From the NCBI GenBank assembly GCA_051294905.1, contig CM119373.1, forward strand, positions 3,908,001-3,972,000: 64,000 bases of DNA, given 5' to 3'. A program made the position numbers and the translations under genes. Positions 11,957 through 63,530 of the stretch are shown in pieces. How positions within the stretch are numbered: the first letter of the stretch is position 1; each line of letters begins with the position of its first letter. The DNA comes from Botryllus schlosseri (lineage: Eukaryota). The notes under the pieces are model-generated. The model worked only from the letters and a program-made list of their open reading frames with translations. It made no database searches and was not told where the DNA came from.

Positions 11957-13877
11957 CAGGACCGTAACTGCCGCACCCAAAACTCCCCAATTGATGGGGC
12001 GCGAGCTCGAAGAGGGCCAAAATTTATTTCTGGAATTTACATAAATCATTGAGTATGTTTTCGGAAATTTATGCAACTTTCTCAAAAAAGAATTTCGCGC
12101 TGCGCGCAATTTCATGATGTCATATTTCTTCACTATTGGAAGCCCTTCCCCAAAAAAATAATTCGCATGATTTATAGAAATGGGGACTTCGGCTTCGGCC
12201 ATTACCGCGCCACGACTAACCAAGACATATGAAGTTTTAGACCATGTTACATGCGACTCCGAGAAGTGTGCCAGAAGGATCAGCAGCGAGAAGGCCTTGG
12301 CCGAAAAGGAATGTCCTTGTGCTGACCGAAATCTTCGATATATATTTATGCAATATACATCCATGTTTAAATTGTCAATAGGCGCGCAAATGACTGGCGC
12401 CGAATGTTCCTGTCCTAGCGACCGCAGCCCCACATGACAAATGCCATCCGGCAGGGAACATTATTTACCAATAAAGAAATACCAATTCGAAATCGTGTAG
12501 GTCTTTTAGTTTAGTACGTTTGGGCGACTTCAACATCTTTTGACATAGCAGAAAGGAGGTCAGGAAATAGCATCATGTCACGAAAACATTATACCAACGG
12601 GTACGCCGGAAGATGGTTAATTATTATTCAGTGGTCCTACGTACTTTTTCAACACACCCCACTCAGGTCTACTGGGTGGATCTGATTACGTGAGCAGAGA
12701 GAGGATAAAAATTGATAGCAATAGGCCTATATATGCAATTCCCGACCATATTGACCGATTAAATCATGAATTATAGAAATTGTTCGCGCTTAGCGCGTTT
12801 AGGCGACACAAGCTCACGCACTAGACAGATCCACAATGTAGACCAGGGGTCGCCAACTCAAAACGGGTCGCGGGCCACTTTTCAAATTTCGTAGAGGCCG
12901 CGGGCCGCATGAATTCGATATCGATCTAAAATAGGCAACCACGTTCTAAAACTCTACGTCAGTACGACGCTGAGCTATTTTGAACTGTGAGCTGTGCACG
13001 ATACGTGGAAACGCTTTTCAGCGACTAAGGAGTCGATATTGGGACTAGGGAGATCCGTTACTAGTTGACAGACCATCTCCACGTAAAGTTTGATCTTGTG
13101 GGAAAGCCCTAAGCCAGTGGTTCTCTAACTTTTTTAGACACGCCCCCTTTATGATACTGAAAAATCGCCATATCACAAAATGCAACCAGGAAGCTAGCAA
13201 TCCCAACGGCTAGTTTGATGGCATGGAAGGTTATGACTGATGATGAGAGAGTTCTATAAGATGAATTCCGGACTATACACAGAGCAATAACGATGAATTA
13301 GAGGTAAATCGCGCGAAGCGCGAAAAATTTTTCAGTTGAGCGCAGCTCCGCCTCCCCTTCTGATGCTTTCGCGTTCCCCAGTTTGTAAACCACTGCCCCG
13401 AGCCGTTTTCTAAGCGTCTTGGTCTTGGCGGTGTTTGGGCCATTGCAAGTCAAGGCAATATGCCCATTCATATCAGCTGATTCTCCCTCGACGGAATGCT
13501 GTTGCCATCACCAGAGCCGTTTTGCCTAGTGACGAATAGTGATGATGGGCACAGGAGAATAGCTTATTTTGAAACAACACAAAACAAGTTGAGACTGTAG
13601 TCAATTTTAGCATTTCAAATTGGTTTTCTTAGTTTTTTTCTGAAATCTCAAATCAGGTCGCGGGCCGCAGAATATGACTTGGCGGGCCGCATGCGGCCCG
13701 CGGGCCGCGTGTTGGTGACTCCTGATGTAGACGATAAGTAGCGGAAGAAAGCGTACAGCATGAAGGGGTCTTGGGGAAAAGCCCCCCAGAAGTTCGGTTT
13801 ATCACCCTATGGGGGGCATAAGACCTATGAGGTGGGGTGGAGGGGGCTGACGCTGACGAAGTGCTGTTACGGGCCTG
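11957..13877. mobile_element. hAT-type element with two nested insertions
   Basis: Ends CAGGACCGTAAC / GTTACGGGCCTG, TSD ACTATACC / ACTATACT. Contains 12844-13724, which in turn contains 13115-13395. Confidence 0.7.
12844..13724. mobile_element. hAT (Charlie-like) non-autonomous element
   Basis: Ends CAGGGGTCGCCAAC / GTTGGTGACTCCTG, GCGGGCCGC subterminal motifs, perfect TSD ATGTAGAC. Confidence 0.85.
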
Positions 13878-15629
13878 ACTATACTATGGGTAAAAGGCAT
13901 TAAAGTCAGGTGTAACTGTGACAGCAATAATGTTCATGATCTTTATGTTCTTGGACGCATTCGTTGTCCGTCATTTTCTTACGTAATATGCGTCCATCGT
14001 CGTTTTAAAACACCTCTTGGACACTCGACAGATAGACTAGGCCTACCATCTAACTATTTCTTCGATATTGCCGCGAAGACAACTCCACACCGCTCTTAGA
14101 GAGGTCTTGAGGGCAGGCCGCAGGTGAGCCGCTGTCCGATAGCCTGTGTTAAAGACTGTTCCGAACTAGCAATGTTCAGGCAGCCTTTTCAGTGCTGCGA
14201 CAAAGACACCAACAGTGTCAGCCAGTGTTGGGATGACTCGAGTCAGACTCGAGTCACCTTTTTTTAATGACTTGACTTGACTCGAGTCACTTTGATAAAA
14301 TGACTTGACTTGACTTGACTCGGCGTATCAGAAACATGGATTGACTCGTGACTCGGAGCAAAATTCACGAGTCAATTTCAAGTCATCAAGTAATCGGTGT
14401 CGATTTGAATCACTGAATCTTGCATATGTTCGGATTGTTCGCGAAACGCTGGTGTAGCCGTGAGCGCGACCAGTCATTTAATGATCGTGTGTTCGCTCAC
14501 AAATAAATTGAACGCAAACGAAGTGATCGAAGCTTACAGCTAATGTTGTTGTAAACTAGTATGGTAAAGTAATTAATGTATGTTTTTACCTTAACCAAAC
14601 CTCTTGTTTTATTGAAATTGAATTCAAATATAGTTTATATAGTCCTCAACCATTGGCACAGGCTCGAATTGCATCATATCGATTTGTAAATGGGTAATGT
14701 ATTGCATCCTATCAATTCGTCTCTATTCTCTATTTTGGCTGCATGGCAGTGGCGGCTCGTCCTATAGGGCAACTGGGGCATTGCCCCACCTAAAATTCTG
14801 TTCAATAACAATTCTTTACCATTTATAGACGCACGCCAATCTATATATACCGAAATCACAGCGAAAATGGTATTCTTCTTGTCCTTTCGCTTGTAAATGC
14901 CCATATATAGCGAAGTCTCTGCGAAAATCGAATTCTCTTCTGTGTTTTCGCTTTGCGAATGCCTAGCCGGGGCATGCCCCGGTAGCGCTCATAACAAGCT
15001 TTCACTGTCTATTCTCTCAAAGCCGCGCACAATAAAGAAACGGTGATTTACTCCCTCCTATTCATAAAATTACCGAGCAACCGGGGCACAATAGCTCTGT
15101 GCCCCTAAGGTGTGATGTAACAATCGTATCTATAGCTGAACTCGGTTACCGTCATATGCGTTTAGTCGACCTTTGCTTAGAATTCTGATGCGGCGTTTTA
15201 ACACTGGCACTGTACTCGTTAACATAAGCCATACAGCTCAATTCAATCTTTAAATGTGCGATTCTTATTCAACTGTAACTGTAGTAAGAGCAATATGGGC
15301 GGATATCACGACGTTTTCAATAGAAATTCGAGTTGTATCAAATGGCAAATGGAGTGAATCAACGATCATGCGCAGTAATGAATTCCAATTAGCATGTCTG
15401 ATTGCATACTTAATAACACTGTCCAATTCCACGGCCCGATCAAAGAACTATCACGAAAGAACGAGTATTTGCTCAGTCGATTCATAGCAACGATGAGATG
15501 GTATTTCACGGCTCGTGCTCGTCATATCGACATGTGCAACGAAATCACGTATTATCCTGCCTCCCATTTCGCGTAAAACGTAGTGATCACTGATCATTAT
15601 TTTCGAACCGTACAATTGGCCAACAAGGT

Positions 15630-16730: not shown

Positions 16731-19235
16731 CAGAGGTGGTCAAAGTAGTCAAGAAAGCTACTCAAGTAGAAGCAGAAGTAGCGAAGAAAAAACTACTCAA
16801 GTACGAGTAGAAGTACTTCTTCAATAAGCCGCCTAAAACTACTTGAAGTAGCAGTAGAATTGACCGACTTTAAATCTACTCAAGAAAGTAAGTAATTTTG
16901 AAAACAGTCTTAATTTGTTCGCATGGTCTGTAAAAAGCTGCAAATTGAGCTGTGCAGAAGGTGCAGATAGCTTGATTCGTATATATGCATCCCAGGAGGT
17001 GTCAATTTTCGACAGAATAAGCGTTCTTTCGCATCATGGGATGCAACTTATAGTATTGCTGTGAAAATGCGATACTAACCTTTTGTTTACTATAAGAACC
17101 CGCTTTAGAGAATATCATGGCATGGCGCCTTACCCTATACTATAAGGCCTGTTAATAACAAATATTGTGGATCGCAAAATTTGTATTTAGTGTAGCTATA
17201 ATTTCGGAAAATAGAGGCATTTGCTTTTATGCTTCAACATGTATGTTCTGCAGACAAAAGAACTAAAAGTAATTAGAACTCAAAGTGTGATACTCGCAAT
17301 TGAAAGTAAAATACAAATATCAATTCTAACAAGCGGAAAATATATTCCATGTCTTTTGTCCATGAACAGGCCGTGTTATTTTTGGCATTTCAGGAGCCAG
17401 ATGCCAAAACTGCCAAAAATAAAAATTTGAAAATGACAAAAATAACACGGCCTGCCAATAGTGTATTCCGTTCATGGTGTTGTGTTAACAGGACCGCATT
17501 ACAAGCGAGAAGATCGTGTGTGAAGGGCAGGTTTCTTACTGTATGGGTCCAGCCCACCACTTAGGGGTGAAAGCATGGTGTCCTAAATGGTGTGGGCACA
17601 GCGAGATTGAACGGCAGACTGCTTTTGGTTTACTTCATACTTTCCATTTGTCCAAAGGCAATTTAACGGCCATTTTTGACCGGCTTTCCGAGCGCTAAAT
17701 TTGATAAAACGGGTATCAATGGAAAGCTGCCGTTGTACTGTCTGCTCATGGATCTGGATCCCCCAAATTCAACCACGATTTTTGCATTGTGATCGAATTG
17801 AACATTATGACGCATCAAACAGTCTGGCTATGTCTGAGCTGTAGTCTCGTTTTGCCAGACAGTCTTGTTGTGTTAATGTGCTAATGTGTTAATGTGCTAT
17901 CTTCCCAGGACTCTTCTATGTGAGTTGGTAATATTAAAGCCATCTGACGTGACAAAATTCCTCCTAAAATATATCGGTAGACTGATGGAGATGGGATGGT
18001 CGGGCTACAAAATAGAATATGTTGAGAGACAACACAGGGAACTCCTGCAAAAGTATCGGGAAGAAAATTCTTTCCGCGATGAGATCGATGGCACTAGCGC
18101 AGCGATCTCTTTTCATGATGCTTGGAAGCCGGTTCGGCCCTCTGAAAATTTTGAAGCTACGAAAACCTTTTGTGGAGGACTGGCAACATTCTTTCCCTCA
18201 ACGGTTACTGTTGCAGCCGATAATTCCCAGATTCGTTGGGCGAAAAATGAATTCAGACCTGAGTTTGGAAGCACTGTTACAGTGCAAACAATTTAAGTCT
18301 ATTCAAAAGCTGCAACAATCAGGTGTTGAGCGTGTTTGTTAGGCTTCTCATTCTTTTTCTTATCGGCACCGATTCCGAGTGGATACTGCACATTTTGTGG
18401 TATTCGTTTGATATTATTAACCTATGTAATCGCTAGGCTTTTTCTTCTTGTTATTGTTTGTTGGTACTGATTATAAGTGGTTGCTGCACATTTTTTGGTC
18501 TTTTTTGATAAACTAGCCGAAACAAAGCGTTTTTATGACGAGTTCGAGTCTGAAGCTATCTATTTTGAGGTCGATGCCAAAACTGCCAAAAATAAAAATT
18601 GAAAAATGCCAAAAATAAGCAAGTTTTGGCATATGCCAAAAATAACACGGCCTGTCCATGAAGCTTCAAAGGTGATCTGCTAAACAGGTGTTCAAAAAGC
18701 GTTCAAAACGTTCAAAAAGCCGGGTTTTTCAGATTAACAGGACACTTCTTGGGCTGTTAGATTACGATATGATGGGTAATTGCTAGATTGCGAAACGGTA
18801 GTCTGAAACGTTATGATGGGCCATATTTACTATGATGAAATATTTGATATGGGCGACAGTGCGGTGTGAGCGTAATCAAGCAATCCGGTACCTAAATTAT
18901 ATTCACTGATACTTTCGTGGAAACGTATTTTTCACCCCATAACTACCGTGCGCCATGCGCAACAAAATTTCTGGGCATTACTTGACTTTTAGGAATATTA
19001 AATGTTGGTACTCCGTGAAAACAGCCCCGAAATTCAACAGGCTATCTTTCGAATTGGGGAATTAAACTACTTCCACTTGACAAACTGAAAATAGCGAAAA
19101 TTAAGTAAGTTGATCACAAAATATTATAAAGTAGAAGTAGAGAAAATCAGATTTACTTGAGTAAGGACCAGAAGTAGAGTAAAACTACTTGAGTACTTTC
19201 AAAAAGTAAAAGTACTTCGTTAATGACCACGTCTG
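16731..19235. mobile_element. hAT-type element with AGTA/TACT-rich ends (second copy at ~57251-58477)
   Basis: Ends CAGAGGTGGTCA / TGACCACGTCTG. Colinear with the copy at ~57251-58477 except for the insertion at 17367-18654. Confidence 0.8.
17367..18654 (+). mobile_element. hAT element carrying a frameshifted transposase C-terminal remnant (17886-18342)
   Basis: TIR CAGGCCGTGTTATTTTTGGCA, perfect TSD TCCATGAA. The remnant reads FCGGLATFFPSTVTVAADNSQIRWAKNEFR / DLSLEALLQCKQF. Confidence 0.85.
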
Positions 19236-20588
19236 ATTATGATGCCACGTTACATCAGCCTTCACCATGTCAATATTCCTGATCTGCACTCCGCTAATAA
19301 AATCGGTATATCGCACGCCCGTGTTCGAGGCTACACATTTCCGTGTCAATAATAAATTTTAATATGCTTCTATAGCTTCTCCTCCATACGAAAATACGAA
19401 TATGAATTATCTTTACGTCATATTCGATCGATATCAAATTTTTCAACTTGAGTAACTTCAATGACCAAGCTTACTGCGTTGTTTGCAAGGTGCAAAAACA
19501 TAAGCTTCTCGACATCGTCGACACACATCAAATCACTGATGCCGATATCGTATGCCGTTGAAAGCTGAGACGTGAATCCCGTCGTTTACGGGACATGCTG
19601 AATAACTAAAGGTATCTTGATGAGAAAGATGCTCATAATTATGCAATTTTACTCAACCATTTGTATCTTGTAACCATGCACATAAAGACACTTGTGAATA
19701 CATAGTCAGGGGTAGTCAGTCACTCATGGTTGATCAGAATCGAATCACCGCCGATTCTAATCAGAGTCTAATTTCCAGGAAGAAAAAGAATCGAATCAAT
19801 TCTCTATTTTAATTTGGTATTTATTATCTTAACTTTAATACTGTTGAACACGTGAACGCGCATCTATCCAATTCCTAACAAATGTACTTGTACATGTACA
19901 GTCATCAATATTTCGATGGTTGTGGAATACCATCATTATATTCTCTCGCAGTATTGATATGCTCGGTAGGGCCAATTTTGTAAATTTTACCATCTTCACA
20001 AAATTTGCCACGTTTTTCTTATGTCGGACGCATTCTCGACCACCTATTCCTAGCCAATATATTTTATCTCGAGTATATTAACTTTTCACTGGTGCTTGCG
20101 TGAAGCAAGCTCGGTCTTTCTAAAAGAACGCTAACAACTGACAACAAAGCTGACCTCTAATCTCTGCGTTGATGATACGATCAAATGAGAATTTCTCCAG
20201 AATTCCTACCTAAGTGTTGGAGGTTTATCTAGGCTCCTGCTCGTCATCTCATCCGTGTAAGCGGTGTCCTACAAAAACCTAAGTGTGCGGTACTACAAGT
20301 AGGCTGCTACGGAATAAAAATGAAAAATATCGGCCTGGTTTCAATGACCACAGTAGTCGACGAACACCATGAATACAACAAACAAACCAAATGAATTAGT
20401 ATATGGACTCAATCTACATCTACCGATTGAGGAGGAATATGGCAAAGTGTCATTATCGTCGTGTATATTGCAGTAGATCCGATATATAGCATCAAGTCCA
20501 TTATAAAAGTTTATTGTTGTTCATAAATATTAGACATCAATAGACTGATAGTAATTTCTTTGTAAATTGAAACTGTGGTCGAATAAAT

Positions 20589-22988
20589 CTAATCCACATT
20601 TAATGGTCCCCCCATAACATGTGTCTTCCCATTCAATGCACCGTAGTCTATTGCTTGTAAATGTAGCTTTATCGCTTTTACTAGCGCCGCCGCCTCTTCA
20701 ATTGACATAGCGCCTTGACTATGTGACATAGATGGTTTCTGCATCGGCACAGGATGTGATGGCGTAGCGTGAAGCTCTAGCCCACTCCCATGTAAATGAG
20801 TCATGTGGAGTGAGGTGTCTCGCTGACATCGGCTGGGTAGACCCAAGTTCTCGAACAGTGTCCGTCCCATCAATCGCAGTTGCGGATCGTCTTCAAATAT
20901 TCTCCGAACTTGATCTGAAAATTAACTTAAAATAAATATCACGAGGCATAACATTTGACATACGCATACTTAACATTTCCCTACTTAAAGTTAATTGACA
21001 CTTTAGCGTGGCGTCTTAACCAGGGGTTGTGCCATACGGCAACGAAGCATAGTCTAGGCTAGGGTCTAAATATTCTGCGTCAGGATGCAGGACGCTTCCA
21101 AGTCCATTTCCTTAAAACACTTACTGTTATCATGGATTGCACTCTTCAACTGTTCAAATGCTTCCTCAGAACTTATTGCAACGATAAATTCTCGCTTTAA
21201 TTCGTTGTACGCACTTCTGTCAATTATTGACCACTGCGCGTCACACCCATCTAGCGTCGCCAGCTTTCGGTACAGTACGACGTTTACCTTTCCAGGATCG
21301 GCCGCGGTTGCCAGACGATGTCGTATGCTACTCTGTGAAATGAAAGAGTAGCAACATATTGAAACATGGCGATAACCAGTGTTCGACGTTGGCGAATACA
21401 TTCTAAATTTATACGAATGCGTATTGACATAGCACGTTTATTGTAAGTCGCTAAGTTAAATGTTCCTGCATCAAATAAATTCGCATCGTCACAATTTCTG
21501 TCTCTCGGTATGGTGCAATCGTTCGCACAACCTAGCCATTCTTAGAAATAGAAAGACATACAAAAACTGCTGTTTGCTATACTATAGTAAAACTATTGGA
21601 TATGAGGAGGAGCAATCATTCAAATTAAACCTATCGTAGTTCGCATCGACTGTAAGGTTAGCGTTGCACTCACCTGGAAGGTCTTTTGGTGCGCTCTGGT
21701 ATAATAGGGGAATATCATGGAAATATTGCGATATATTTCGCTATTTCGTAGTGCCGCGCAATTCGCCATTTTGAACGCGAGGAAGATGGCAACATCGTAA
21801 CTTCCAGGATGACGAGACAGAGGATTCACTGCCGCCATCGCAGCTGCAGGACCCAAAATGATGTTAAGAATGTTGTTCTCGTCCAACTCCACGGAAATAC
21901 GACTTTTGTATCTTCTTTTCGTTCCTCCTCTATAACAAAAACGCGAATTATCGATAATGGAACTGACATATGCACAGGATAGTAGACGTAGATACAAAAA
22001 TAAGAGTGATTACAGTCAGATATTGAGTATAATGTAACGATTCGTCGCTACAATATTAGTTTACTAAACATTGTGATGGATAACCCCGACAGTATCAAAG
22101 CTCCATTTGTAAGCTACGCAACTTGTTGAAATGAAAATTGTTAAATGGCACCAATCATATATGTCTTTGTCTGCGGCGTTGTTCAAGTCAATGTTATAAT
22201 GATATAGGTAATCAAATATGTCTTACAAAATTCTCTTTGTGTTATCCTTCACAACGTTCAAAGAATTCCAACTTACTTAGTCCTGGAATTCATACTCTCA
22301 TTCGCCTTTCGTCGAAGATCAGAGAAAGAATACGATTTCCAACCAATCCTGTCGAGGAGGATTCGCAAATTTTCGGGGGATTGGGGGCCAATTTCTGGAT
22401 GCAAAATACGTGTGATGCCGTTGTGTTGCGATTCAAAAACATTGTACGCAACTTCGACGTCTGGCGCGCCACGGGATTTATCATGGTTTTGATTCTGGAG
22501 TAGGAATCGGTTGGGGGCGATGAAATGACGTTCATTCTGCAAATATTGCGGTTGTACTGGGACAGACATTTCTAGTTCACACACGGGATCGCAGTTTCCG
22601 AGAATTTGATCTTGCTCCGGATGGAAGTATCTGGAATATAAAAATAAAGGTCCATGCTCTGAACAACATCATTCAAGACAAAATTCCACGATACAAAGTC
22701 AATCAGCGAGGCACGATAACAAACTAGTTTTACGTAGGGTTCCAGTGGAATCGAAATCACAAAGTTTTGTAATGCTTACCGGAAATTTGTTGCGGTATTT
22801 TGCCAACTAGACAGTGGCGCGGTGTTTTCCACATGTCTCTTTTTGCGTGGTGGTGTCGGCAAAGAGCTTGTGACAATCTCTGAGTAAAGTTCATTGACAA
22901 AATTCACGGCATCTTCATCGCTCCAGCGACATGCGGTCGGGTGTTGTAAGTCGGCGAATTGGTTTCTTTGGTGAAAGCCGCTGCGTTG
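20589..22988 (-). CDS. Divergent forkhead-box (Fox) transcription factor, ~450 aa; first exon uncertain
   Basis: Five phase-consistent GT-AG exons (22780-22988, 22277-22630, 21674-21929, 21125-21332, 20589-20914; 1353 nt, no internal stop). Forkhead domain RHPGSYDVAIFLAFKMANCAALRNSEIYRNISMIFPYYTRAHQKTFQ|SSIRHRLA...QWSIID versus consensus KPPYSY..LI..AI......LTLSEIY..I...FPYY......WQNSIRHNLS...W.LD, with a phase-0 intron at the WQ|NSIRH position. NLS-like PPRKKR. A possible ATG micro-exon lies at 23056-23061 (MS). Confidence 0.85.
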
Positions 22989-23314
22989 CTGTAAAATGAC
23001 GAAATATGTTATGAATATGTACCAGGTAGCCTATATAATTGATGGACCATGTTACTGACATTTTATTTTAAAATTCGGGGTAATTCACTAGATATTTATA
23101 TTGTTAGGAGAATTTGTGGTTATTCCCATGACGCTATCCGTTTAAATATAAAATCTCACGCGATCATTACTTCTACTTGAATTTCCTATTCGAATGCTAT
23201 TATATCGTAAATGACCTTTCTAAATTTTTCAATGCCAGTACCATTTCCTAAATTCGAATACGTATAACTTTCTGTTGTGCGAATTCGGGTGACATTACCT
23301 TACGTATAGTTTGC

Positions 23315-26300
23315 TCACATGCGTATCGGCAATGATATTTGCTCTGTTATGTTTGACCCGATATAGACTTTCGCAATGATAGGCTCAGTTGATATAGATA
23401 TAATTCCACTACTTTGGAGGATAGATATACAATGCGGCAATGCTCTGAAATTTAGTTCTTCAAATAATACTAAGGCGATATAGTGGAGCAAATATCTGAT
23501 GTCTTGGTCAAGACAAATACAGTAAATCTTATAACGACCTACCTCGGAATCCCGCACTACTTGCTCAAGAATATCTGGACATCTTTGGCGTTTCATACTG
23601 CACTGCTGCCTTCGTCAAGTAGTACGTAAAATCAAATGACTCAAATACAAATGTAATGGGTTTTAAATCCACCTTATCGCGGGTCAATTTGATTGGATTC
23701 TTGAAATTTCTCTCTCTTGCATACAATAGTCGATACATTTTGTTGGCTGGTGCAACAACTTGTAATTAGGAGATAAGGGTCCGTCTACTGCGTTACCTGA
23801 TATAACTTGATAGATAATTCCTCTAGATTAATGGCCAATTAGGCGAAGGTATATCAATAGTCTTACTCAGCGACACAAGTTCAATTAAGGTGATTTCATC
23901 ACAACATCCATTGCAATAATACATTTATGATAACTCGAAGACTCTTTGATACTTCTTTTCAATTGTAATCGGAATAATAAAGGGATTCAAATATATTCCA
24001 AAATAAAATATTGGCCTATTAGTCGAATGTATCAATCGTTTGATCCTGCGCATCAAAGTCAAATAAGGAGCTTTGATCACAACATCCATTGCACTAACAC
24101 ATTGGTGATAATTCGAAGACTCTTGGGTGCTTCTGATCAAGAGTTATTGGCACAATAAAGTTCTTCAAACATATTGAAAAAGTTAAATTGGGAATTGAGG
24201 CGGGAATTTTGAAATTACCATTGAAGATGTAAGTTAGAAATCGTGTCTCTGTGCCAATTGGTATGCAAATTAATGCCATGTTCATTTTACAGATACGTAG
24301 GAACGTCACATATTAGCCGATCTGGTCGATCCTACGAAATTATTCGATACTCAGCGCCTATTGGAACCTATTTCATGGCTTCGAAACAACTGTCACGTTT
24401 CGTGATATAGTGTGCGGCTACATAGAAAGTAGATCAAAATTGATGAACAGCATCATTCGATATTCCCGCGGATTTCTCGTCACGACAATACTAAGCACGA
24501 CAATTTTCCAGTATATTAATTCTACCGGAATATTGACACTTGAAAACTAAATCAAAGAAAGGTCTCTGTACTACTACGGTCACAATCCGACAGTGCTTTT
24601 CGACAGCTGCGTAGTATATTCTTTGGTCGACACTTTGACCGTTGAATGCTCCAGTGATGTGCGTTTGGGGGAATCAAGTGAGGCAGGGCCTCATCTGTCG
24701 TCAGGATGAGTAAATGAAAATTGCGGAGATCTCCGATGATGATTGGCATTTCCTATTGTTCATGAATCACTAAATTTTGAACATTTTTACACCCAATATA
24801 AAGCGAATTTGGATATTTTTTTTACATATTGCGTGAAGGAGACGTGGGCATGGAGGAAACAAATACGAAGTAAGCCTCAACTGTGATAGCGCAATTACTC
24901 ATAAAATCGCGGAATTTATATTAACTGGTATTAATGGAATGCTACCGCCTCACTGATTACAGAAATCGGAATATTGATAGTTCTGGAGCATCAATATCCC
25001 TCGAAATCGCTAGGACTGTGGAATTCAGCGGAGAGAAACAACATCCCAGTAAGGCACAGAGTAATTTGCATCGGTGATTGTTGGTTCAACAATGGCAGAT
25101 CAGTGAAAGAATGCTCTGTCGCAGTGCCTTTCAACCTGTGTGACGTTTCGCACTTGTGCGAATGAAAAAAAATTGCAGTGCCAATGACTAAGGTGGTGCG
25201 AATGAAAATCTGGATCAAGTGCGAATGAAAAGCGTGATTAATTGCTAATTTTTTTCTGACGTAGGATAATTCAAATAAACCTAATAGAAAAGCTAAGGTC
25301 TGTGTAACTTTTGTAGTTGCGACGCAATTGTAAAAAATTGCAAAAAATCGTGCGACAGTTTTTAAATATCCAAGGTCACGGTGCTGGGTACTGTAGCATA
25401 TAAGTGAGACACGAAGAAAATATGGCTTTATCATGAGAATTATTCATGATAAGATTTTTCCGACTGTTTTTGTTTTCTGGAAAACATGAACAAAGACCGT
25501 TGGGATGAACTAGTATAGGGGTGTGCAACGAGCGAATTCAAGCCTATGAGACTCAGCCATTTCGAGGTCCACTCCTTCTGCGTCGGGGAACATGAAGACG
25601 TAATGTTTTGGCCAACAAACCACTGATAACATGCGATGCCAAAACATAAGCGGCGACAAAACCTTGGTCTAAGAATGGCCTATGCTGGATGGACAAACCT
25701 TTCGATATGGATATGCTCTGTTGTCGCGTTGTCGGCACGGAATAGTCCCGTTCTTGCAATCTCATTAGACGGTATAGTATAACTGTGACACGTGGAGGAA
25801 TTTAATACGCCTCCATTTGAAATCGCGTGCTTCATACTAATCATACATGTTTTGTAGAGCTGTGTTCGGTAGAATTGTGGTGTGCATAACGTCATACATG
25901 TCCGTAAAATCGTAGCATACAGCTGTAATATTAAAAGTAAATTCATTTTCATTTGTGAGGCTGAGGTCGCGAGATGCCACAAAGATTTTGGCGGTATTCT
26001 AAAAGCTGCTTGAGCGTTATTAAACTGTTATGAATTCTCATGTTAAATTGAGGTAAAGAGCAGAACACACAGTATCGTGAATTTATTTGCTTCTCTCATA
26101 TCCTCTCCATACAGAAGTTGGAGGAACGTATCACAAGGTAGTGAGCTCCAATGTATGCCTACTCTCGTTTTGCACCGTATGTTCCATGACATAAGGCAAA
26201 AGCCTCAACACAAACATGTACGTTTTTCCCCTGTCGACAAACTGGAGCCTCCGGGACCTTTGTGTTAGTTCCCAAAAACGATTTCTGCCAGCAAGCATTT

Positions 26301-26530
26301 TCACTCGCGAAAAATACTCAGTATTTTGGATGGGAGTGCAGAACAGATATTAAGACCTGGCCATCCAAGCACTAGTGGACGTTCTTGTACAAAAACCAAA
26401 AACATTATTTGACCGATAAAGGTTTTAGTGAAATAGTTGGAATCAAAACGAGCGAAAGAATTGCCTTTTTTATGAGACTCGTGATAGCTTAAGCTACATA
26501 GTAGCCAATTTGTTGCACATCTGAACCACA
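23315..26530 (-). pseudogene. Decayed NACHT/LRR (NLR-like) gene
   Basis: Broken reading frames contain, in the expected order: AKIFVASR (sensor-like), KHYVFMFPDAEGVDL, FHSHLIQIF (winged-helix-like F.HL..QEF), IIGDLRNFHLLI, then LRR-like units NMFEELYC.., NIFESLYY.., NLEELSI.., LFEELNF.. with a direct ~178-bp duplication (23901/24079). Many stops and frameshifts; no clear Walker A seen. Confidence 0.35.
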
Positions 26531-29500
26531 AGTATCTTCGTCTTTTTTAGTATAACAATTTTCGATTAGTTTCAGCGAATGAAATTTATTTTACAAAAAA
26601 AGTTTGAATGGAGCTCCAAAAGGTTGAAAAGCACCGCCTATCGAATTCGCAACTGACGGTGTATAGTACACTGCTTCCCAAGCGGTCGGTCGCAGCCAAT
26701 CAGTGGATCGCGAAGCTTCAGGTAAGTCACGAAGAATCTTCCATTCCATTTGTCAAATATGCTAAACCTGCGTTCTCGCGGCATTTCAGAAGAACGGACT
26801 TCGAGACCCAATCTCCCCGCGTACGCCACTGCACGCGAAGTGCTATCACAGAGGTCATGTTTCAATGAAATATACTAATTGCATGCAACCAACTATGGTC
26901 GAGACGGTGTGTCATCGGGAATCGCAGGTATGAGTTGCAGTGTGTCTTGAACTCCAGGGAATCCCTAAAACAGGCTAATTTAGAAAACTACTGGGGTTCC
27001 CTGGAACCCCGTTTAAGAACCACCAATATAGTGACTACAGCAGTTACGCAATTGGGTGAATATATAGATAACGCAGTGGTTCGATTATTGTATCGCTCCC
27101 CACAGCTGCAAACGCCAATAGGTTGCGAGCTCGAGCCCGAGAGAGGTCGACCACAGAATATCTACTCAGGTGCCACGGGTTTATCCTATTATGTGGTGTC
27201 AGACCGCAGGTGTGCCGTGCGGTAAGTTAGCAGATCATGAGAAACGTCGGCATGCTGTAAATGACCATATAGTATAGTCCAAACACCATCAATAGAGGCC
27301 TACCACAATCAATAACAACCATATTATGTAATTTGTCTGTACAATGCTGCACGGAGCTAGGTATGGATAATATTGGACGGCGCGGCGTGCGGGGTTATGG
27401 TTATATACTCTTGTGAACGTTCGATAGCTCATACAAATCATAAGTAGGAATCTTCTCGTCCAATATCAATATCGTTAGATCATGTCGCATAATATTGTAA
27501 TTGGTCCTGTATACGTAATCCATATTCTTCGAATCGCGTAACCGATCCATTCACTTTTGTAGCATCAAAATATGATGTAAACCTATCGAATCTATTTTTC
27601 ATCTCCTTTGCTGTGACCATTTAGTTTATTTGTGTGGCGGATCGTCACAAAATCAGGTGTAAAGGGTAATGGTGCAGGAAGTAGATTTCGTAAAATTACC
27701 GTCACAGATAGAATCGCCAATGTAAGTGCATCGGTTACGTTCGGCAATCAGCAAATCAATCGCCTCGTGATTGAAGTTCAACCTGACAACGGATCAGCAG
27801 TGCCCTGCGTATAAGGGAAGGTGTGAAGTGAGGCTCACGTTCGCGTTCTGTGTGTGAACCTCAGAAATTCAGAGGTTCACGTTCACAAACAAACTTTGGT
27901 AGGTTCTGCACTGTGAACCTTTTTTCATAAATAACAATTTTCAGGTCATTATCGCATATTTGGTCGAAATTATTTGCATTTCAACATCGGACCAGTCTAT
28001 GCATGGTGTCAACCTTAATCAACCTTAAACTAGCATGCACCTTGCTTAACTGAAAAATTTTACTTGCTTTGTTACAAGTTTGGTCGAAATAGTCAGCTTT
28101 CCGTTTGTATATAATTAGTGATTCTCTGCTGTGAGCTTGACCCGCAATCACACAATATCGGGAAGGAAATATGTAGGCAGTCAGCAGATTATGCATATTC
28201 TACCAATCAATGAAATTCATATAAATAATACATTGTTGTCGAATGTAAAAAATCTAGCAGGCGTAGCATTTAATATGTTTGTGCGTGGCGAGATAGCGTA
28301 GTGGTCGGCTAAATTGTTGGGAAAGCATTTGATTGTTTCACTTTGTACATTTGGTGACGTTTAAAATCTCAGCATATATATACTTCGGAATTGTGGCATG
28401 ATGTGGTCCGAGTCGTCACTAGGTATCGTGTACCTGTACTGTACAATGTACAATTGTACATAAATGGTGTTATGCTTTGGTCTGCGGGATAAAGTTTGGT
28501 TTCATGGAATGCTACAAATATGCTTGTTTGGGGCCATGGGAATTATATAGCTACACCGTCACATGTTCACCACCCTATTAAAGCTGAATTCCACTGAGAA
28601 CGTTTCACGTATACTTGGGCGCTGTTAGTGGTGAAATATTCACAGTGTGGAACCCAGGACAATATTATCTTGTACGAGATCGAAATTCATACGACTGGAG
28701 ATGAGATTTGAAAAGATGGGCCTCGTAACAGCGAATCCTTCCTATAAGCTTTTGGTACGACCGACATGCAGCCATGAGAGAAATAGCGCAAGGTACATGG
28801 GCACTGCCCACGTATAAAGATTAACAATAGGTCATTCCAGCAGGCAATCTCGAAAACCTAGATCATTGTAGTTGTATAACAAACTAATTTGAACGGAACG
28901 ACGATAATCTAATTCTAATCTAATTTTGAAAATGTTTCCATGGTAAATTTTTAATTCTAATCAAGTTTTACTGAAAATGCGACTGAATCTTGCTATTTGA
29001 GCCAAGATTGCTCTACCAGCATTTTCCTTTCTCGTGCCTATGACAATGAACTCTGATTTGAATGAACTTAACTTTTTCTTGTATTCCTTTGTAATTCGGA
29101 ATGGAATTCAATTTTAAAGATATTAAAAATTGAGCAATTCTAGTTCTAATATAATAAGTTCATATCATTTCAGTTCTAATCCCAATTTGGAAAGCTGGAG
29201 ATTTTCTGTATGTCCAACTCTGCCGGTATAGCGAACGCGGTATTTATTTGAAACTACTTATAATATCAACTTATCGCCTTTGAATTTAATGGCAAGCTTA
29301 TGACTTACTGATGCGAGGTACCATATGCATTGGCCTGACCCACAACGAGAAAGTAGCGATAAGGATTGAAATTAATTGAGTCTGACTTCTGAATCAGACA
29401 ATGGAGATGAAATTTGAAAGTAATCCGTCGTATTTGTCTTATGCGCCCCTGAATAGTGAGCGCGCTCAGACATCATCGAAATCTGATAAGACTCGCAGAC

Positions 29501-29789
29501 ACACCAGCACAGACGTCCTGTAATGTTGGGACTTTGATAACAATACCGCAATAATCCTCTTCAATATCGTAACCTGTCTACTATAAATCAGCATGGGGCT
29601 TGTTGAGCAATGATTAAAATGCCATCTTCAGATAAACAAAGGGACTGCCGTGTCCCATTGTAATTACCGTTTGATAATGTTAGAGAAATTTATTAAACTA
29701 AACGATTTGAGTGGACTTGTCGCTGAAGAACTCAGACAAATCTGTAGAGTGTGCAGTAACCCATAGTTAGTTTGGTGCTTAGAAGTATG

Positions 29790-30048
29790 AGAGAGAGAGA
29801 TATGATATTCTTTCTCGCCTGCACCATCGAGATGCTTTGGCGACGGAGTTGCGATACGGCCCCATGAGGTCATCTAGTCCACGCCCCCGTTCTTTTTCTC
29901 CTCCATGCTATCCGTGATTGCTGAGCGCCTAGCAGGATAGCTGCGGATACCATTTTTCGAGTCTTTGGTATGACCCGGCCGGGGATCGAACCAACGACCT
30001 ACCGCTCGAGAAGCCGGACGCATAACCATTACACTATCTCGCTCGGGC
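29790..30048 (-). mobile_element. tRNA-derived SINE with a conserved central domain (Meta-type-like)
   Basis: A-box TAGTGTAATGG and B-box GGTTCGATCCC, then GGTCATACCAAAGACTCGAAAAATGGTA..CCTGCTAGGCGCTCAGCA, and a (TC)n tail. A degenerate relative lies at ~1250-1340. Confidence 0.75.
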
Positions 30049-30423
30049 ATACTACGCATAGTGTGGAGCTTTGAACTGAGTTGAATTATTATGAAATACG
30101 CTTTGAATATTGTGCAAATATGCGTTCGTGCGGTTCGTGAAGCTGTGTTACCAAGTTGACTCGCCCTGACGAGAACATGGAGTCGAATCGCGTATAGCCC
30201 GAATAGTTGGACGTCTGATCATTGAAATAATATTATGCGGATACTGATGCAACGGTGATTCAATTGAATTAGATCGAGGTTGAAAATCTGCTCAACTTCC
30301 GATTGGCAACAACCTGAAGCTATGCGAATTATTGTCAACATCGCGCATGTATAGGGTTTTATGATTGAGACTTAAACGAGAATGGTATTTATTATTCAAC
30401 CAGTCGCCACCAGGTTGCAATTC

Positions 30424-31019
30424 CAGGGTTGTAACCAAGTCACAATGCTCCGAGTCACAAGTCAATCTCACTTTTATAGATTTGACTCGAGTCAAGTCGA
30501 GTCATTTTCAATTCGCCACCGAAACAAGTCCGAGTCCAAGTCATCGAGCAGAGGTTCGAGTCCGAGTCATGGTATTATGACTCCAGTCCAAGTCCAAGTC
30601 ATTGTGTTGACTGCTCAGTTTCCAGTTAAAGTCTTGTTAAACATACTGTTATAACTCTGTTTTGTGATATCGAATGGTTCGCATTTATAATATACTGATT
30701 TTTCTCACTTTTAATAGTTTCTGATCGCAATTTCAAGTACCAGTACCAATAGACGAAATCCCAATAGGGTGGTTACTTTACTATTCTTCGAAATTGCAAT
30801 GAAATGTCGGTCTTAGCCGTCTGAGTCTCGAGTCATATGACTTGGTTCGAGTCATGCGCAATGACTCGAGTCCAAGTCGAGTCAATACACATATTGACTC
30901 GAGTCGAGTCGAGTCATTTCCGTATTTTGAGAAAATGACTCGAGTCAAGTCGAGTCATCAGAAAATTGTGACTCGAGTCTGACTCGAGTCGAGTCATGAC
31001 TCGAGTCATTACAACCCTG
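30424..31019. mobile_element. hAT-type MITE (CAGGGTTGTAA family)
   Basis: TIR CAGGGTTGTAA / TTACAACCCTG, TSD TGCAATTC / TGGAATTC, GACTCGAGTC arrays. Relatives at ~3262-3532, ~7820-8000, 36489-38512 and ~56900-58561. Confidence 0.85.
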
Positions 31020-31611
31020 TGGAATTCTCAAATCCTGTTCAATTTCGGACAGCATAGACTGGATTGTCGACATGAGGATGCTGTAAAATCGAGAATATAT
31101 CGTCACATCAGCGAGTCATGCGCCACGCAAAGCCAAACGTTATTGGCATCAACTTTTCGGAGCCGAACTCTCCCTGAACTTCGAGGTATGACGTCAATAT
31201 CTAATAGGCCAAACGTCCTTTATGTGGTCACCATTAGTTTTCGATCACGGTTTAAAAGATGAGCTGAGACTTCAAATCACAGTTATTTGATGACTTCCTA
31301 AGACTATAGCTCAGCAACTAGAATTTTGTATCGCAATTCGAAATCTGCAGGATTTCCCGGGATTAGCGAATTAGTAAAAGGCACACACAAGCTACACAAG
31401 CAACATTTATTCCATCTAATATTGACGCAATAACATGCTCGCGTGAATACGAATCAAACCCAGCGATCAAAAGCCGCTCAGATAATGAGCGTTTAAATTC
31501 GTGTACCGTCTGTTTCGTATAGAAGTTGATTCGATCTCATCTTCATTTTTGGCAGATCTTCCTTTGACATGTCCGATTGAGTCATGTGTACTATTACTAT
31601 TATGTGTATAT

Positions 31612-33032: not shown

Positions 33033-34600
33033 GTGTATATACCTTAAATGTGTTATCAGTCCCTTTTTGCTGGACCCTGAAACTTTCAAAACGTCTTGAC
33101 ACAAGATGCATTTGGCTTTTTCTGCAGATTTGCAAAACAAAAAGGTTTGCCATACATCTAATTTTTTCATCGCACTGACATCTCCGAAATTCGCCATTAT
33201 CCCGACCTGTATTTCACCACCATGGCACCATATTGTAACGCTCTGACACTGTTACGATCCGTAGACTACGACGGAAGGGATTGTGTAGTTCATTTCTACG
33301 CCCTAGTGGATTTTAATATCGCATAATTCTTAATTTTTTTAGACGATCGAGTTTGTGACACTGTTTTATTGTCGAAATAAGAGATATTGCGCTACGTAAG
33401 CCTTGGTACATGCTGTTTACGAATCCCGGGGTTTCATTGGGATTAATCCCGGGATCGGGATTTCCCGGGGTCCCAACGCTACTCGCAACCCAAGCCTCAC
33501 ACATAACAGAATGCATGTTTATGATTATTATGCTGCAATTTTACGAACATGTAGGATACGATATAGAGAACGCCCAGCCAACAGTTGTGCGCAATTCAGC
33601 TTCAGGCCCATGAAGCATTTCAGGCTCACGCGATTTCAAATTGAGGCGCGTTATTTTCCTCTATGGGTCATAATTGTTTTGAATTTGTACTACTGTCTTC
33701 TGAAATTCCAAGGATGGAACGGTGCCCAACATTTCGGCGACCGGGCATATCAATGTCCAGTCCACGGTTTTGAGCAATGAGCCACGGTCGTTTCTGACTA
33801 AAGTTTTATTGTCGCCGATCTTGTTGGCATCGCACTTTGCCCGGTTCCGGTGCGGAGGGGCTTGGTGTAGAAATAGGCTACCGGCTTCCCACATCCGCTA
33901 ATTGCACATCCCTACATTAAAGCGTCCCATGAATTAAGCCAATAGCTTATGGTTAATACAAGGGTCGACAGATTCCCATGATCAGGCAATAGTGCAGTAT
34001 TTTTAACGTTTTTCCGTGTCTCGCTGATTTGCTCTAGTGCCCAACACATTTCACTCACATAATTGCGTACGAACTATACCCGCAATGATTTCTACGTACC
34101 TAAAAATTCAACAAATATTACATAACATACACACTAAAGATCGCTGGGATGTTGTCGCGAGTCGCGACCCAAAATTATACTCTTCGCGACCCATGTATTG
34201 GTCGCGACCCTACTTTGAGAACCAATATTACGCGATTAGCATGTATGTAGCCTACGTGACCGCGTATGGTTCGAATCGAACGTTCGTAATGCCTTGTATT
34301 ATGTAGGTCATACTCAAATGTGCTCAGTAACGATATACTTCTACTATTTTAGAGTACTCAAGGTTTTTCCTACAGCCTCTTGTATTTTACCTACCTTACG
34401 TCTGCTCAATGCTAAAATCAAACATTCTCTTCCCCTTTAACGTCAATGGCCTTTTCGGCGCCGCATATTAGCCAATACTTCACCTGATATATCCCGATGC
34501 ATTGCCGCATTTTATTTTCGTGGAGGTTTGTCCCTATCGTCTTACCAAGCCAATCTATCCATTTCTCCGTTTTATTGTTTCATTGACAGTGTGTTTTACT

Positions 34601-35977: not shown

Positions 35978-38897
35978 TAGGGCGGTTTTTTTTGACATGT
36001 CAAAATTTGTCAAAATTTTGTCAAAATTGTAGCGTTGGGTCAAAATTTGTCAAAAATTTTCATAAAATTAAAATAAAATTGACGTCTGCATTTTGTTTGT
36101 ATTGTAGATTTAGCACTGTCGGTGAACTTATAATTTGTTATTTTACCGCTTTTAGCCTATTTTATAGGCCTACCGTTGTAAACGGCTAATCGTCTGCTCA
36201 TTGTGAATCATAAACGCTAAAAAAAAACAAATAATAGGTAGAGATGGTGTTATGGTCAACGTACCGCAGTATTCTAACTGAAGAAAGACTTCTTGTGCAT
36301 TGCGTCATTCTTATATTAAGAAGCACACGATGAAAAATTGTGATGTAGACAACATTGTCAGAATGAAGCAACACGGTGTGTCACCAGCACCAGCAGTGTA
36401 CGCACAGCTTGAGTGTTGTCGGCCAACAACTGCTGCTGTTGAACGTCCTTGACAAGCTTCTTAGTAAGGACGTGCACTTGCTATTGCTCAGGGTTGTAAC
36501 CAAGTCACATGGTTCCGAGTCACGAGTCAATCATACTTTTGTAGTTTTGACTCGAGTCGAGTCGAGTCATTTTCAATTCATCACAGACTCGAGTCCGAGT
36601 CCAAGTCACCGTTTAAAGGGTCAAGTCCGAGTCATGGTGTTATGACTCGAGTCGAGTCCAAGTCACAGTATTGAAGTCATGTTCAACTCATGTTTTCAAT
36701 CCTGCCTGGGTGATATCGAATTCCCTGTTTGCGAAACATGCTCATTTTGTCCCTATCAGAGTCTTGGCACGTGTTTATTTAGGCAGATAACGGACAGGCC
36801 CTGGCCTCATTTACCGATGCTAAAGATAACTTTACTAATCTTAGAACTTAAAATCAAATATCTCTCTTGTCAGTCTGATATACATCACCAATACAAGCAT
36901 TCAGTTTTTATTATGAACACATCGACGATAGCTCATGAATAGCTGATAGAGAACCAACAAATTCACGTCAAGATACTAGTTGATAGAGAATCAATAGATG
37001 CATGTTTATGTAGAGGTATTTACAACAGGCCAGCATGCTGTAAAAGCGTGCATGCAACTATGTGCATTGTGCAGTGACAACAGAACAGATACCTTTTGAT
37101 TATACCAAAGGTTTTCCCAATTGCATTACAGACTACATCGCAGTTACAGCATTGGAGAAATAATTGTACAATGGAGCTGTTCAAAAACATTTTTTCAAAT
37201 TTTCCGGCTACTTCTTAAAATTGCTAGATTGCCTAAAAATCAAATTTGGCTCAATTCCAACCAGTAGAAAGCTATGAAAGAAAATTTTAGACTAATTACA
37301 AATAGAGATCTTCGAATTTTACCGGCTATCTCATGATATTGTTACATTGTGTAAAAATATGATTCATAGCGAATTTGACTCAATTCCAACTAGAAAAAGT
37401 GAAGTTATTAGAGTAGAATGTTTTGGATATGAAAAAATAGTCGGCTTACTACTATGTAATTATAATATATGAAAGAATTTCTCACTAAAATACTCCATTT
37501 ATTTTCAAATCCAAAATATTCTCCTCTCACATCATTGATTCCACTTTTTTCAAATTAAGCCAGATTCAGTGTTCCTTTTATGCAACATAACAATTTTATC
37601 ATGTAACCACCCAGTAAAACAAAAAAGAAGATATTTTAGAACAGCCATATTGTACAAACATCACACAACATTAGCCATTCGTTATTACTCACGTGTACGT
37701 ACAATGCACATACCTAAAAAAAACGTCAAATGGACGAGGGGCATTGTGTGTTTTCACATACAGCAGATCAAATCAATGAGTTACACCTCAAAAATACTAA
37801 TGTGGAAAGGAGATCCTCAAATGCGTTAAAGCGGCATGGCCGTAGAATGAATCCATACATCTACTGAATACACGTTCCACTAGTGCACTAGATGCAGGAA
37901 TTGACAAGCATTTTTGAACCACACTGAAGAGCATTGAATACTCTTTCTTTCTAGTCGCCCAAAAATGCAAAGAATCATCGCCTTCAAATCTACACATCAG
38001 CTTATCAGTCTCTTCACCATCTGAGTAATTTCATTCGCTCTAATTGAACTTTGATTCAATTGTTTGCTTGCATAATTGAAAAGTCTTGAGTAGCCTACTT
38101 TAATTGCGCAGGATCTATTACCTCTTCATCATTGGACGATTTTGTACAATGCATTGCTACTATGTATCATTTTCTGTTGTTTTTACGGCGGCATATCTGA
38201 TATCAGACAAGTGCAACGAAAGCAGTGGTGACAAATAGCGATGTCGGCAGAATTCGTCGGATGCGTTGATCTAGCCATTTTGATTCGCCAATTTCTTCAT
38301 CTTCAAGTCATATAAAATAAGCCGAGTCAATGACTTGGGTCGAGTCATGCGTAATGACTCGAGTACAAGTCGAGTCAATCCAAATATTGACTCGAGTCGA
38401 GTCGAGTCATTTTCCCATTTCAAGAAAATGACTCGAGTCAAGTCGAGTCATAAAAAAATCGTGACTCGAGTCTGACTCGAGTCGAGTCATGACTCGAGTC
38501 ATTACAACCCTGCTATTGCTACCCATGAATGTAGGAAAGCATCTCTCGTTGTACTGCGAAATATTTTAATTATTTCTACCATAATACATATTGTAACCAC
38601 TGGAATTCTTCATAGGGCCAGATTTCGTTAAAATATTGTTTTTTTTTCATGTAAAAACATGCCTGTTTCTAAGCCAAAAACGTTTTTTTCAGGCCAAACT
38701 ACTTAGTTAGGACAGTCAGTTCCAACCAGAAATGAAGATAAGTGGTGCAATTTCAACATTATGTGGGTAAACACCTAATTTGCATACGTTAGGTCAAAAT
38801 TTGGTCAAAATTCAGTTTTTTTAGGTCAAAAAAAGTCAAAATTTTGATTTTTTTAGGTCAAAATTTTATGTTTTTTAGTTAAAAAAAAACCGCCCTA
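35978..38897 (+). mobile_element. hAT-type element (TAGGGCGG) with a transposase remnant; second copy ~60220-61110
   Basis: TIR TAGGGCGGTTTTTTT / AAAAAAACCGCCCTA, perfect TSD GTTATGAC. The remnant QPTTAAVERPFSILGKLLSKDRHF is clearest at 60526-60804. Confidence 0.85.
36489..38512 (-). mobile_element. hAT element (CAGGGTTGTAA) with a hATC dimerisation-domain remnant
   Basis: Perfect TSD CTATTGCT. 37797-37997 reads DDSLHFWATRKKEYSMLFSVVQKCLSIPASSALVERVFS. Confidence 0.88.
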
Positions 38898-63076: not shown

Positions 63077-63530
63077 GATTAACTAATTATATGTTCATTG
63101 GACATGCTATAGGTACGATAATGATAATGTTCTGCAAAAAAAGACAGCGTGATGGGTCCCGTCTGTCTCCAATGCAGAGTTGCAGGCTATAAGTACAAAA
63201 TTTTCTGCTTTTCTAAATCTAGTTAAAACGATAATTACGTTATTCCTAATCAGATTTGAATTACTGAATCCACACCGAGTTAGACAAAAATACAACATAA
63301 ATCATGTTCAGTTCATTTCATATTACAGTTCACTTTCACAACCATAAGAATGGCAAATGCCTGCACACCAAGCTTCGCTCGTTACAAACTATAAGTTCTC
63401 CTGCAGCATTTTCTAGAAAACCAGTGATTAGATTGTGAGAGGAGGAATCAACTGTATTAAAATATATCAACCTGATTTGTGCCAACAGAAGAAGTTCATT
63501 TACCATCTTAAAATAGTACATTGAGCTTAC

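Follow-up and report, generated by a model that had tools for sequence, protein, structure and literature searches.

Within a 64,000-nucleotide (nt) stretch of the Botryllus schlosseri genome (assembly GCA_051294905.1, contig CM119373.1, hereafter contig 3, positions 3,908,001-3,972,000; the whole stretch is referred to as the window), a divergent gene of the forkhead (Fox) type was found on the minus strand at window positions 20589-23061. Six exons delimited by GT..AG introns were joined into a coding sequence of 1392 nt, corresponding to 463 codons without an internal stop. The five introns measure 34, 149, 347, 341 and 210 nt.

Exon 1 (23023-23061) is a 39-nt mini-exon carrying the ATG and requires the 34-nt GT..AG intron at 22989-23022. 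It is followed by exon 2 (22780-22988, 209 nt) and exon 3 (22277-22630, 354 nt), both without a known domain; the frame of exon 2 is intact in all five close copies described below, and the end of exon 3 aligns to Orphan Fox-1 of the ascidian Styela. The first part of exon 4 (21674-21929, 256 nt) encodes a family-specific N-terminal extension preceding the forkhead core, and its remainder encodes helices 1 and 2 as well as the start of helix 3, ending in phase 0 with T-F-Q. The rest of helix 3 (S-S-I-R-H-R-L-A) opens exon 5 (21125-21332, 208 nt), which continues through a long beta-hairpin/wing region into a further helix, and exon 6 (20589-20914, 326 nt) ends with a TAG stop at 20589-20591. 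All six exons lie on the minus strand. Exons 2-6 (1353 nt, 450 amino acids (aa)) constitute the robust part of this model and match the five exons of about 450 aa that a first-pass annotation of the locus had joined in phase, with the ATG mini-exon as an addition. Furthermore, an AATAAA on the same strand at 20510-20515, 74 nt 3' of the stop, represents a putative polyadenylation signal, and a TATAAATA box at 23093-23100 (minus strand), 39 nt 5' of the ATG, may serve as core promoter; the latter is kept in four of the five close copies.

The gene is part of a larger family. Searching the genome (495.5 Mb, 219 contigs) with exon 4 retrieved 23 loci at E 8.5e-13 or better, which is in agreement with the lineage-specific Fox subfamily previously suggested for the locus. 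Four of these loci, residing on contigs 1 and 13, are near-identical copies of the window gene, with exon 4 at 93-98% amino-acid identity. Among the other 18 loci, one on contig 1 shows 54% identity and 17 show 40-49%; 12 of these 17 lie in a tandem cluster at 2.35-4.28 Mb of contig 15, a contig on which six weaker fragments were detected as well. A conserved stretch before the forkhead core is common to all family loci. Exons 4 and 5 were modelled in 18 of the 22 other loci, so that 19 members including the window gene were available for comparison.

Forkhead identity, recognition helix and wing

Assignment to the forkhead type is based on several profile comparisons. The Pfam profile PF00250 matched exon 4 with 18.9 bits (E 0.0017, profile positions 2-48), and three more distant family members exceed the Pfam cut-off on exon 4 alone (30.6-31.4 bits). 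A hidden Markov model (HMM) of ten uninterrupted canonical forkheads from the same genome matched the spliced window protein with 26.4 bits (P 3e-10) at residues 239-294, i.e., from helix 1 to helix 3 and across the splice junction. Comparison of the 19 spliced family domains with the canonical alignment by means of hhalign resulted in a probability of 97.4% (E 1.4e-11) over 58 columns, covering helices 1-3 only. Moreover, a PDB search with the family profile of exon 4 (23-row alignment A1) matched 23 distinct sequences, 22 of which are named forkhead-type (best match FOXA1, 5.2e-8), the remaining one being labelled eIF3b. The three nearest clusters in the ESM Atlas also bear Forkhead (scores 0.82-0.87), a result that was taken as a lead only.

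The domain of the closest relative identified, the Styela orthologue of Orphan Fox-1 introduced below, was folded with alignment A2 and yielded a predicted local distance difference test (pLDDT) value of 84.8 and a predicted template modeling (pTM) score of 0.69. Its elements follow in the order beta-hairpin, helix, helices 1 to 3, long two-stranded hairpin and two more helices. Foldseek assigned 60 PDB matches at E <= 0.001 to this model, and all 32 best rows are forkhead-type; template modeling (TM) scores were 0.81 for FOXK1 and 0.89 for FOXN1, the latter with a root-mean-square deviation of 1.8. The window protein is likewise predicted to adopt a winged-helix fold, with a long beta-hairpin forming the wing. 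Like canonical PF00250 domains (FOXA1/FOXA3, FOXN1, FOXK1, FOXG1), it features an alignable core of helix 1, strand 1, helix 2 and helix 3, the recognition Arg and His, and the Trp in the last strand. It differs from them in an additional N-terminal beta-hairpin and helix, as far as modelling indicates, and in a wing without sequence alignment to the canonical domains.

Helix 3 of forkhead proteins sits in the major groove, where its Asn, Arg and His contact bases. The altered helix 3 (FQSSIRHRLA) that had been noted in the first-pass annotation was recovered in the spliced model, and the change concerns a base-contacting position: the window gene reads S-S-I-R-H and not the recognition motif N-S-I-R-H with its base-contacting Asn. 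In comparison with the canonical forkhead, Asn is replaced by Ser, the preceding Trp by Phe and the next Asn/Ser by Arg/Ala, while Arg and His of the motif are retained in the window copy. The first helix-3 residue is Ser in 18 of the 19 modelled members; L035 alone has Asn there, and this copy is interrupted by a premature stop. The helix-3 Arg is present in all 19 members and is followed by His in five and by Asn in 14 of them; the Arg-Leu after this position is again found in 19 of 19.

Replacements of the helix-3 Asn and His are not confined to the family studied here. The gene L012 (G000:C17:2841735-2841995), a Fox gene scoring 105 bits with Pfam, reads W-K-S-S-I-R-R, with Ser at the Asn and Arg at the His position, and the Asn is also replaced in two genes of this genome that we take to be FoxH-like (W-R-D-S-V-R-H).

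The distance from the helix-3 Asn position to the strand-3 Trp, counted on the sequences, exceeds that of canonical forkheads of the same genome by five residues, in line with the lengthened strand/wing region described earlier. The Styela orthologue of Orphan Fox-1 has an equal helix 3-to-Trp length and aligns to the window protein without gaps from helix 3 through the wing; hence, the lengthened wing is inherited from the Orphan Fox-1 type.

The phase-0 intron within helix 3 follows directly after T-F/Y-(K/M/Q) in all 18 other modelled family members, and the next exon starts with (S/N)-S-(I/V)-R-(H/N) in each of them. An intron break right after W-K/Q also occurs in the genes L023, L030, L021/L028 and L026 of the same genome, of which L023 is tentatively classed as FoxO-like, L030 as FoxP-like and L021/L028 as FoxJ2/3-like. 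Genes tentatively labelled FoxM-like and FoxG-like have the break at other positions. The view that the intron at the WQ|NSIRH position is common to intron-bearing Fox classes is thus borne out by the FoxO-, FoxP- and FoxJ2/3-like genes and by L026. The position is that of intron-bearing Fox genes of the clade II type, and it argues against an origin of the window gene as a retrocopy.

Relationship to ascidian Orphan Fox-1

A full HMM search with A1 over 1.84 billion representatives returned 99 matches; word-indexed searches among longer proteins, conducted with exon 4 and with the family alignment, gave no match, which counts as weak evidence. The top HMM match, a bacterial protein with SprB repeats (P0001, 3240 aa), was rejected as a false positive. 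The best true match, P0002, is encoded by Styela clava LOC120342057 (XP_039266658, 995 aa); its match begins at profile position 1, and its Pfam Forkhead domain scores 70.5 bits. Rank 15 is occupied by a Phallusia mammillata protein bearing the name 'Orphan Fox-1', P0015 (CAB3246972.1). It is the orthologue of P0002, with 42% identity over the domain (E 3e-39) and an N-terminal module in common. Alignment of the spliced window protein to P0002 extends over residues 171-364 with 31% identity in 203 columns (E 9e-23) and crosses three exon junctions; it is collinear and validates the splice model of the window gene independently. The corresponding match to P0015 has an E-value of 4e-14.

Conversely, searching the genome with P0002 yielded 38 matches, all inside residues 710-820. 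Those of highest identity (44-45%) represent the subgroup of the window gene, and the lowest E-value belongs to a canonical Fox gene on contig 9. The N-terminal module of Orphan Fox-1 had no match in this genome at E <= 0.001, and exons 2-3 of the window gene matched the N-terminal part of Orphan Fox-1 only with E above 1.

Maximum-likelihood trees were calculated to place the family. The first one (39 rows, 93 columns) unites the 16 family rows in a clade (100/99) that is sister to P0002 (100/99). For the second (39 rows, 146 columns), P0015 was added and a FoxP-like row that was one-third filled was dropped; in this tree, a clade with support 100/100 unites the family with P0002 and P0015 and excludes the 21 other Fox domains included from this genome. 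In neither tree does the family fall inside this set of 21-22 Fox domains, whose class labels are tentative. The family stem measures 1.5-1.6 changes per column, the trees carry a long-branch warning, and how P0002, P0015 and the family branch relative to one another is weakly supported (86/48). As far as sequence comparison can tell, these results support the conclusion that the window gene fits no ordinary Fox class of this genome. The designation as a highly divergent orphan forkhead in the first-pass annotation therefore stands with regard to the forkhead type, established by hhalign, and to the position outside the ordinary Fox classes; the gene does not stand alone, as that designation would have it, since it groups with Orphan Fox-1.

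Apart from common clade membership, the window protein and ascidian Orphan Fox-1 are collinear over about 200 residues and share a basic K-R-x-Y stretch before the domain, A-H-Q just before helix 3, a helix-3 core of I-R-H-(Q/R)-L, the hairpin extended by five residues and a helix after the wing. They differ in helix 3, which reads W-Q-N in Orphan Fox-1 and F-Q-S in the window protein. Orphan Fox-1 proteins are moreover 589-995 aa long, include the conserved N-terminal module for which this genome gave no match and exceed the Pfam cut-off, whereas the Botryllus type has multiplied to 23 loci and sits on a long stem. Based on these data, the locus is regarded as probably representing a protein-coding gene of the ascidian Orphan Fox-1 forkhead class, within which it would belong to a strongly derived branch specific to this lineage.

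The family profile aligns to two short open reading frames (ORFs) from ENA contigs, P0008 and P0060, from its first positions onward, so that the N-terminal extension is covered too; P0008 stops at W-Q as though at the same intron. The family is probably present in further organisms. Insect proteins with several forkhead domains were rejected as close kin, as their high-ranking matches cover core forkhead positions only. These uncharacterised proteins from Schistocerca (P0003, P0004, P0009, P0013) and Teleopsis (P0007) carry two to six forkhead domains per chain; P0009 and P0013 additionally possess C2H2 fingers, and sub-threshold BEN matches were obtained for P0003 and P0009. They may represent an unusual architecture or fused tandem gene models.

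Selection, decay and the origin of the copies

Conservation of the close copies is concentrated on the coding sequence. Exon 4 shows 95-97% identity among them, compared with 85-93% in the flanking introns. Synonymous divergence (dS, Nei-Gojobori) amounts to 0.05-0.23 and is near the intron distances of 0.04-0.155, and the ratio of nonsynonymous to synonymous divergence (dN/dS) is 0.36-0.71 for exons 2-6 and 0.20-0.56 for exons 4+5. The synonymous excess in exons 4+5 is significant by Fisher's test for the window gene versus L032 (p 4.7e-6) and versus L033 (p 2.9e-4). Purifying selection on the forkhead exons is thus consistent with the intact frame under selection that had been suggested for the locus. 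Furthermore, exons 4+5 are open and of identical length in 11 contig-15 members, for which the median pairwise dN/dS is 0.26 (52 of 55 pairs, dS>0), so that the family as a whole is maintained by selection.

The five close copies retain all splice dinucleotides (five GT..AG pairs), and their indels in exons 2-6 are without exception multiples of three (93, 3, 6, 15 and 3, 3), the largest being an in-frame insertion of 93 nt in exon 2 of L032. Indels in the introns sum up to between 1 and 45 positions per intron and copy. Since splice sites are kept and indels in exons 2-6 come in multiples of three only, the structure represents more than a chance gene model. In the window gene, L032 and L034, the frame runs without interruption from exon 2 to a shared stop. 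Among the five copies, an intact ATG mini-exon is combined with intact frames throughout and a complete C-terminus in the window copy only, which appears to be the best preserved of its subgroup.

Several observations weigh against the assignment of the locus to a functional forkhead gene. At the level of the domain, exon 4 of the window gene misses the PF00250 cut-off of 27 bits, also in the genome-wide scan (21.4 bits), and exon 5 scanned alone by Pfam gave no forkhead match; against the PDB, exon 5 alone obtained irrelevant matches only (E above 0.8), so that support for the wing comes solely through the alignment to Orphan Fox-1. Folding of exon 4 alone with A1 resulted in a low-confidence model (pLDDT 57.9), the element order of which is like that of Styela. 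At the level of the gene, the mini-exon and hence the ATG start via a 34-nt intron are doubtful on sequence grounds: the mini-exon region is affected by 5- and 8-nt indels in L032 and L034, and the homology of L034 stops near 23029. Exon 6 is interrupted by a single premature stop in both L033 and L035, the two close copies on contig 1, and one of the five copies is without its 5' end, indicating that the five-copy subgroup is partly decaying. Exons 2, 3 and 6 taken singly display dN/dS values of 0.29-2.16, and the comparison of the window gene with L034 was not significant in any partition (exons 4+5, p 0.21).

Transcription was screened in four bulk RNA runs, from which 37.2 million records (6-13% of each run) were aligned to window positions 19500-24500, a stretch without a known expressed control gene. 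No read and no splice joint were detected on the Fox gene in these sampled runs of unspecified tissues and stages. At the applied setting of 95% likeness, reads from exon 4 of the sister copies would also have aligned. All 77 aligned reads lie only partly on the stretch and fall into 20168-20501, at a repeat resembling a short interspersed nuclear element (SINE) that is located just 3' of the Fox gene (20195-20376) and has transcribed relatives; the loose ends of these reads carry tRNA-like letters.

The explanation that competes best with a functional window gene, although we consider it rather unlikely, regards the window copy and the four sister copies as silent, recently duplicated pseudogenes whose frames would be open by youth alone, with function confined to the contig-15 cluster or other members. 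The missing reads fit this explanation, as do the premature stops in two of five copies, the copy cut at its 5' side, the 5-nt deletion in one ATG mini-exon, dN/dS values that in several pairs approach 1 for exons 2, 3 and 6, and the lack of significant constraint in the closest pair, the window gene and L034. However, despite a divergence of 0.09-0.23 per synonymous or intron site, the five copies retain every splice site and have no other than frame-preserving indels in exons 2-6, while their introns vary; the forkhead exons of deeper pairs show dN/dS values of 0.20-0.31 with p below 3e-4; and the RNA data are a 6-13% sample from undefined tissues and stages.

The copies are embedded in a low-copy duplicated unit of about 11.4 kb (19988-31351), which shows 79-92% identity to its copies. 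Full copies are present twice on contig 1 and once on contig 13, and contig 13 additionally harbors two partial copies that are broken at differing places, one consisting of the Fox part only and the other of the remainder only. From copy to copy, the ends of the unit are offset by up to about 250 nt; for copies A and B, similarity continues beyond one end, after a small insertion. Like gene-carrying transposons, the unit spans several kilobases, includes a host-type gene and occurs in several dispersed copies; unlike them, it showed no termini, target duplications or transposition gene.

That the Fox gene is the cargo of a large transposon with subterminal repeats is accordingly considered very improbable. 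Five copies of a unit of about 11-16 kb on three contigs and the GACTCGAGTCA-type repeats at about 14.2 kb and 30.9 kb of the window would be compatible with such a carrier, but these repeats are the terminal inverted repeats of an insert of about 600 nt resembling a miniature inverted-repeat transposable element (MITE; 30423-31020, inverted repeats 30483-30509 and 30931-30957), not of the duplicated unit. Only the window copy has this insert; the sequences of copies A, B and C continue from position 30423 directly to 31020. A second member of the MITE family resides at 14234-14741 of the window, and the family is also represented at 38371-38512. For the unit itself, the best end-against-end match was no longer than 11 nt (E >= 0.07), and no transposase-like domain was recognized, as none of 89 ORFs of 38-69 aa and none of 22 ORFs of at least 70 aa (23.1-31.4 kb) matched any family in Pfam. 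Moreover, the partial copies are broken differently, and the remaining family is arranged in a tandem cluster, as unequal crossing-over would give. A Helitron-like or inverted-repeat-bounded carrier element was likewise rejected in view of the ragged ends and the missing unit-terminal repeats.

The proposal of the first-pass annotation that the Fox gene was spread by a transposon is thus not supported, and nothing recognisable as decayed cargo was found beside the gene. Ragged unit ends without repeats and the absence of Pfam-matching ORFs argue for segmental and tandem duplication, by which the family copies would have spread, and not for a mobile element. In summary, the observation of a divergent forkhead gene was confirmed, and the earlier interpretation is partly supported. 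The last alternative, a chance resemblance of joined open frames without any gene, can practically be dismissed: every single-exon Pfam score at the locus lies under the cut-off, but this reading is incompatible with the hhalign and PDB results, with the match to a forkhead protein over three splice junctions and with 23 paralogous loci of the same exon structure.

Further features were recorded in the window. Upstream of the gene, two tandem copies of a 152-nt unit (76% identity) are located at 23852-24181 and are also present in the sister copies. An approximately 890-bp repeat at 12839-13735, found in at least ten copies at 93-98% identity on eight contigs, looks like a young, recently active element, and a dispersed repeat of about 1.3 kb at 17367-18654 has more than 20 copies at 83-90% identity on many contigs. 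Outside the duplicated unit, at 33033-33251 on the minus strand, a BED zinc finger (PF02892, 27.1 bits) was recognized in an ORF fragment, which may be a hAT-derived or domesticated gene piece. An uninterrupted frame of 475 aa on the minus strand at 61655-63082 encodes class II aminoacyl-tRNA synthetase (D/K/N type) and anticodon-binding OB domains and is intronless, unlike its neighbours. Scanning the window with Rfam gave no match.

Possible function and comparison with other Fox expansions

Because Arg and His of helix 3 are kept while the Asn is lost, the window protein would still bind DNA via helix 3, possibly with a specificity that is shifted or relaxed from the canonical forkhead core site. 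Contig-15 members, in which His is changed to Asn, may differ again in specificity. If the gene is expressed at all, this probably happens only in stages or tissues outside the sampled runs. A more far-reaching and quite doubtful proposal is that the expanded family with its S-S-I-R-(N/H)-R-L helix has acquired a new DNA-binding specificity and acts as a taxon-restricted regulator of a narrow stage. If true, this stage could be cleavage, zygotic genome activation or the germline, which would explain the missing reads in the sampled RNA runs, and the family would then be comparable to other arrays of fast-evolving transcription factors amplified in tandem.

Precedents exist both for divergent 'orphan' Fox genes restricted to a lineage and for local expansions. 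Fast-evolving, lineage-restricted 'orphan' Fox genes together with foxQ2 expansions were described for annelids, according to the passages considered from that study (PMC9539403). As in the family of the window gene, the annelid expansions comprise divergent copies that resist classification, local duplication and genomic clusters; they differ in belonging to another phylum and in their parent classes, foxQ2 and foxN2/3, and the same passages mention no change of the recognition-helix Asn (PMC9539403). Regarding tunicates, work on Ciona makes use of the tunicate-specific Fox genes Foxtun1, Foxtun2 and Foxtun4. Expression of Foxtun4 is reported in cardiopharyngeal progenitors (PMC12705688). By their description, the Ciona Foxtun genes resemble the family of the window gene in being tunicate-restricted. 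'Orphan Fox-1' may have been an earlier designation for a Foxtun gene. A published description of this Botryllus Fox expansion or of its helix change was not found in a search whose scope excluded subscription journals.

If the locus represents a derived branch of the Orphan Fox-1 class, as is considered probable here, its significance lies in the family-wide alteration of a recognition helix whose conservation is textbook knowledge: about two dozen copies with Asn changed to Ser, under purifying selection, and most members with His changed to Asn in helix 3 as well. Counts of Fox genes for this genome are probably too low, since most members fall under the Pfam cut-off when scanned exon by exon and no matching protein model turned up among longer proteins in word-indexed searches. 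The family would thus represent a natural experiment on a winged-helix factor changing or relaxing its DNA specificity after duplication. It also shows how massive the expansion of an ascidian 'orphan' Fox class within a single lineage can be, a point of relevance to the turnover of gene-regulatory networks in tunicates.

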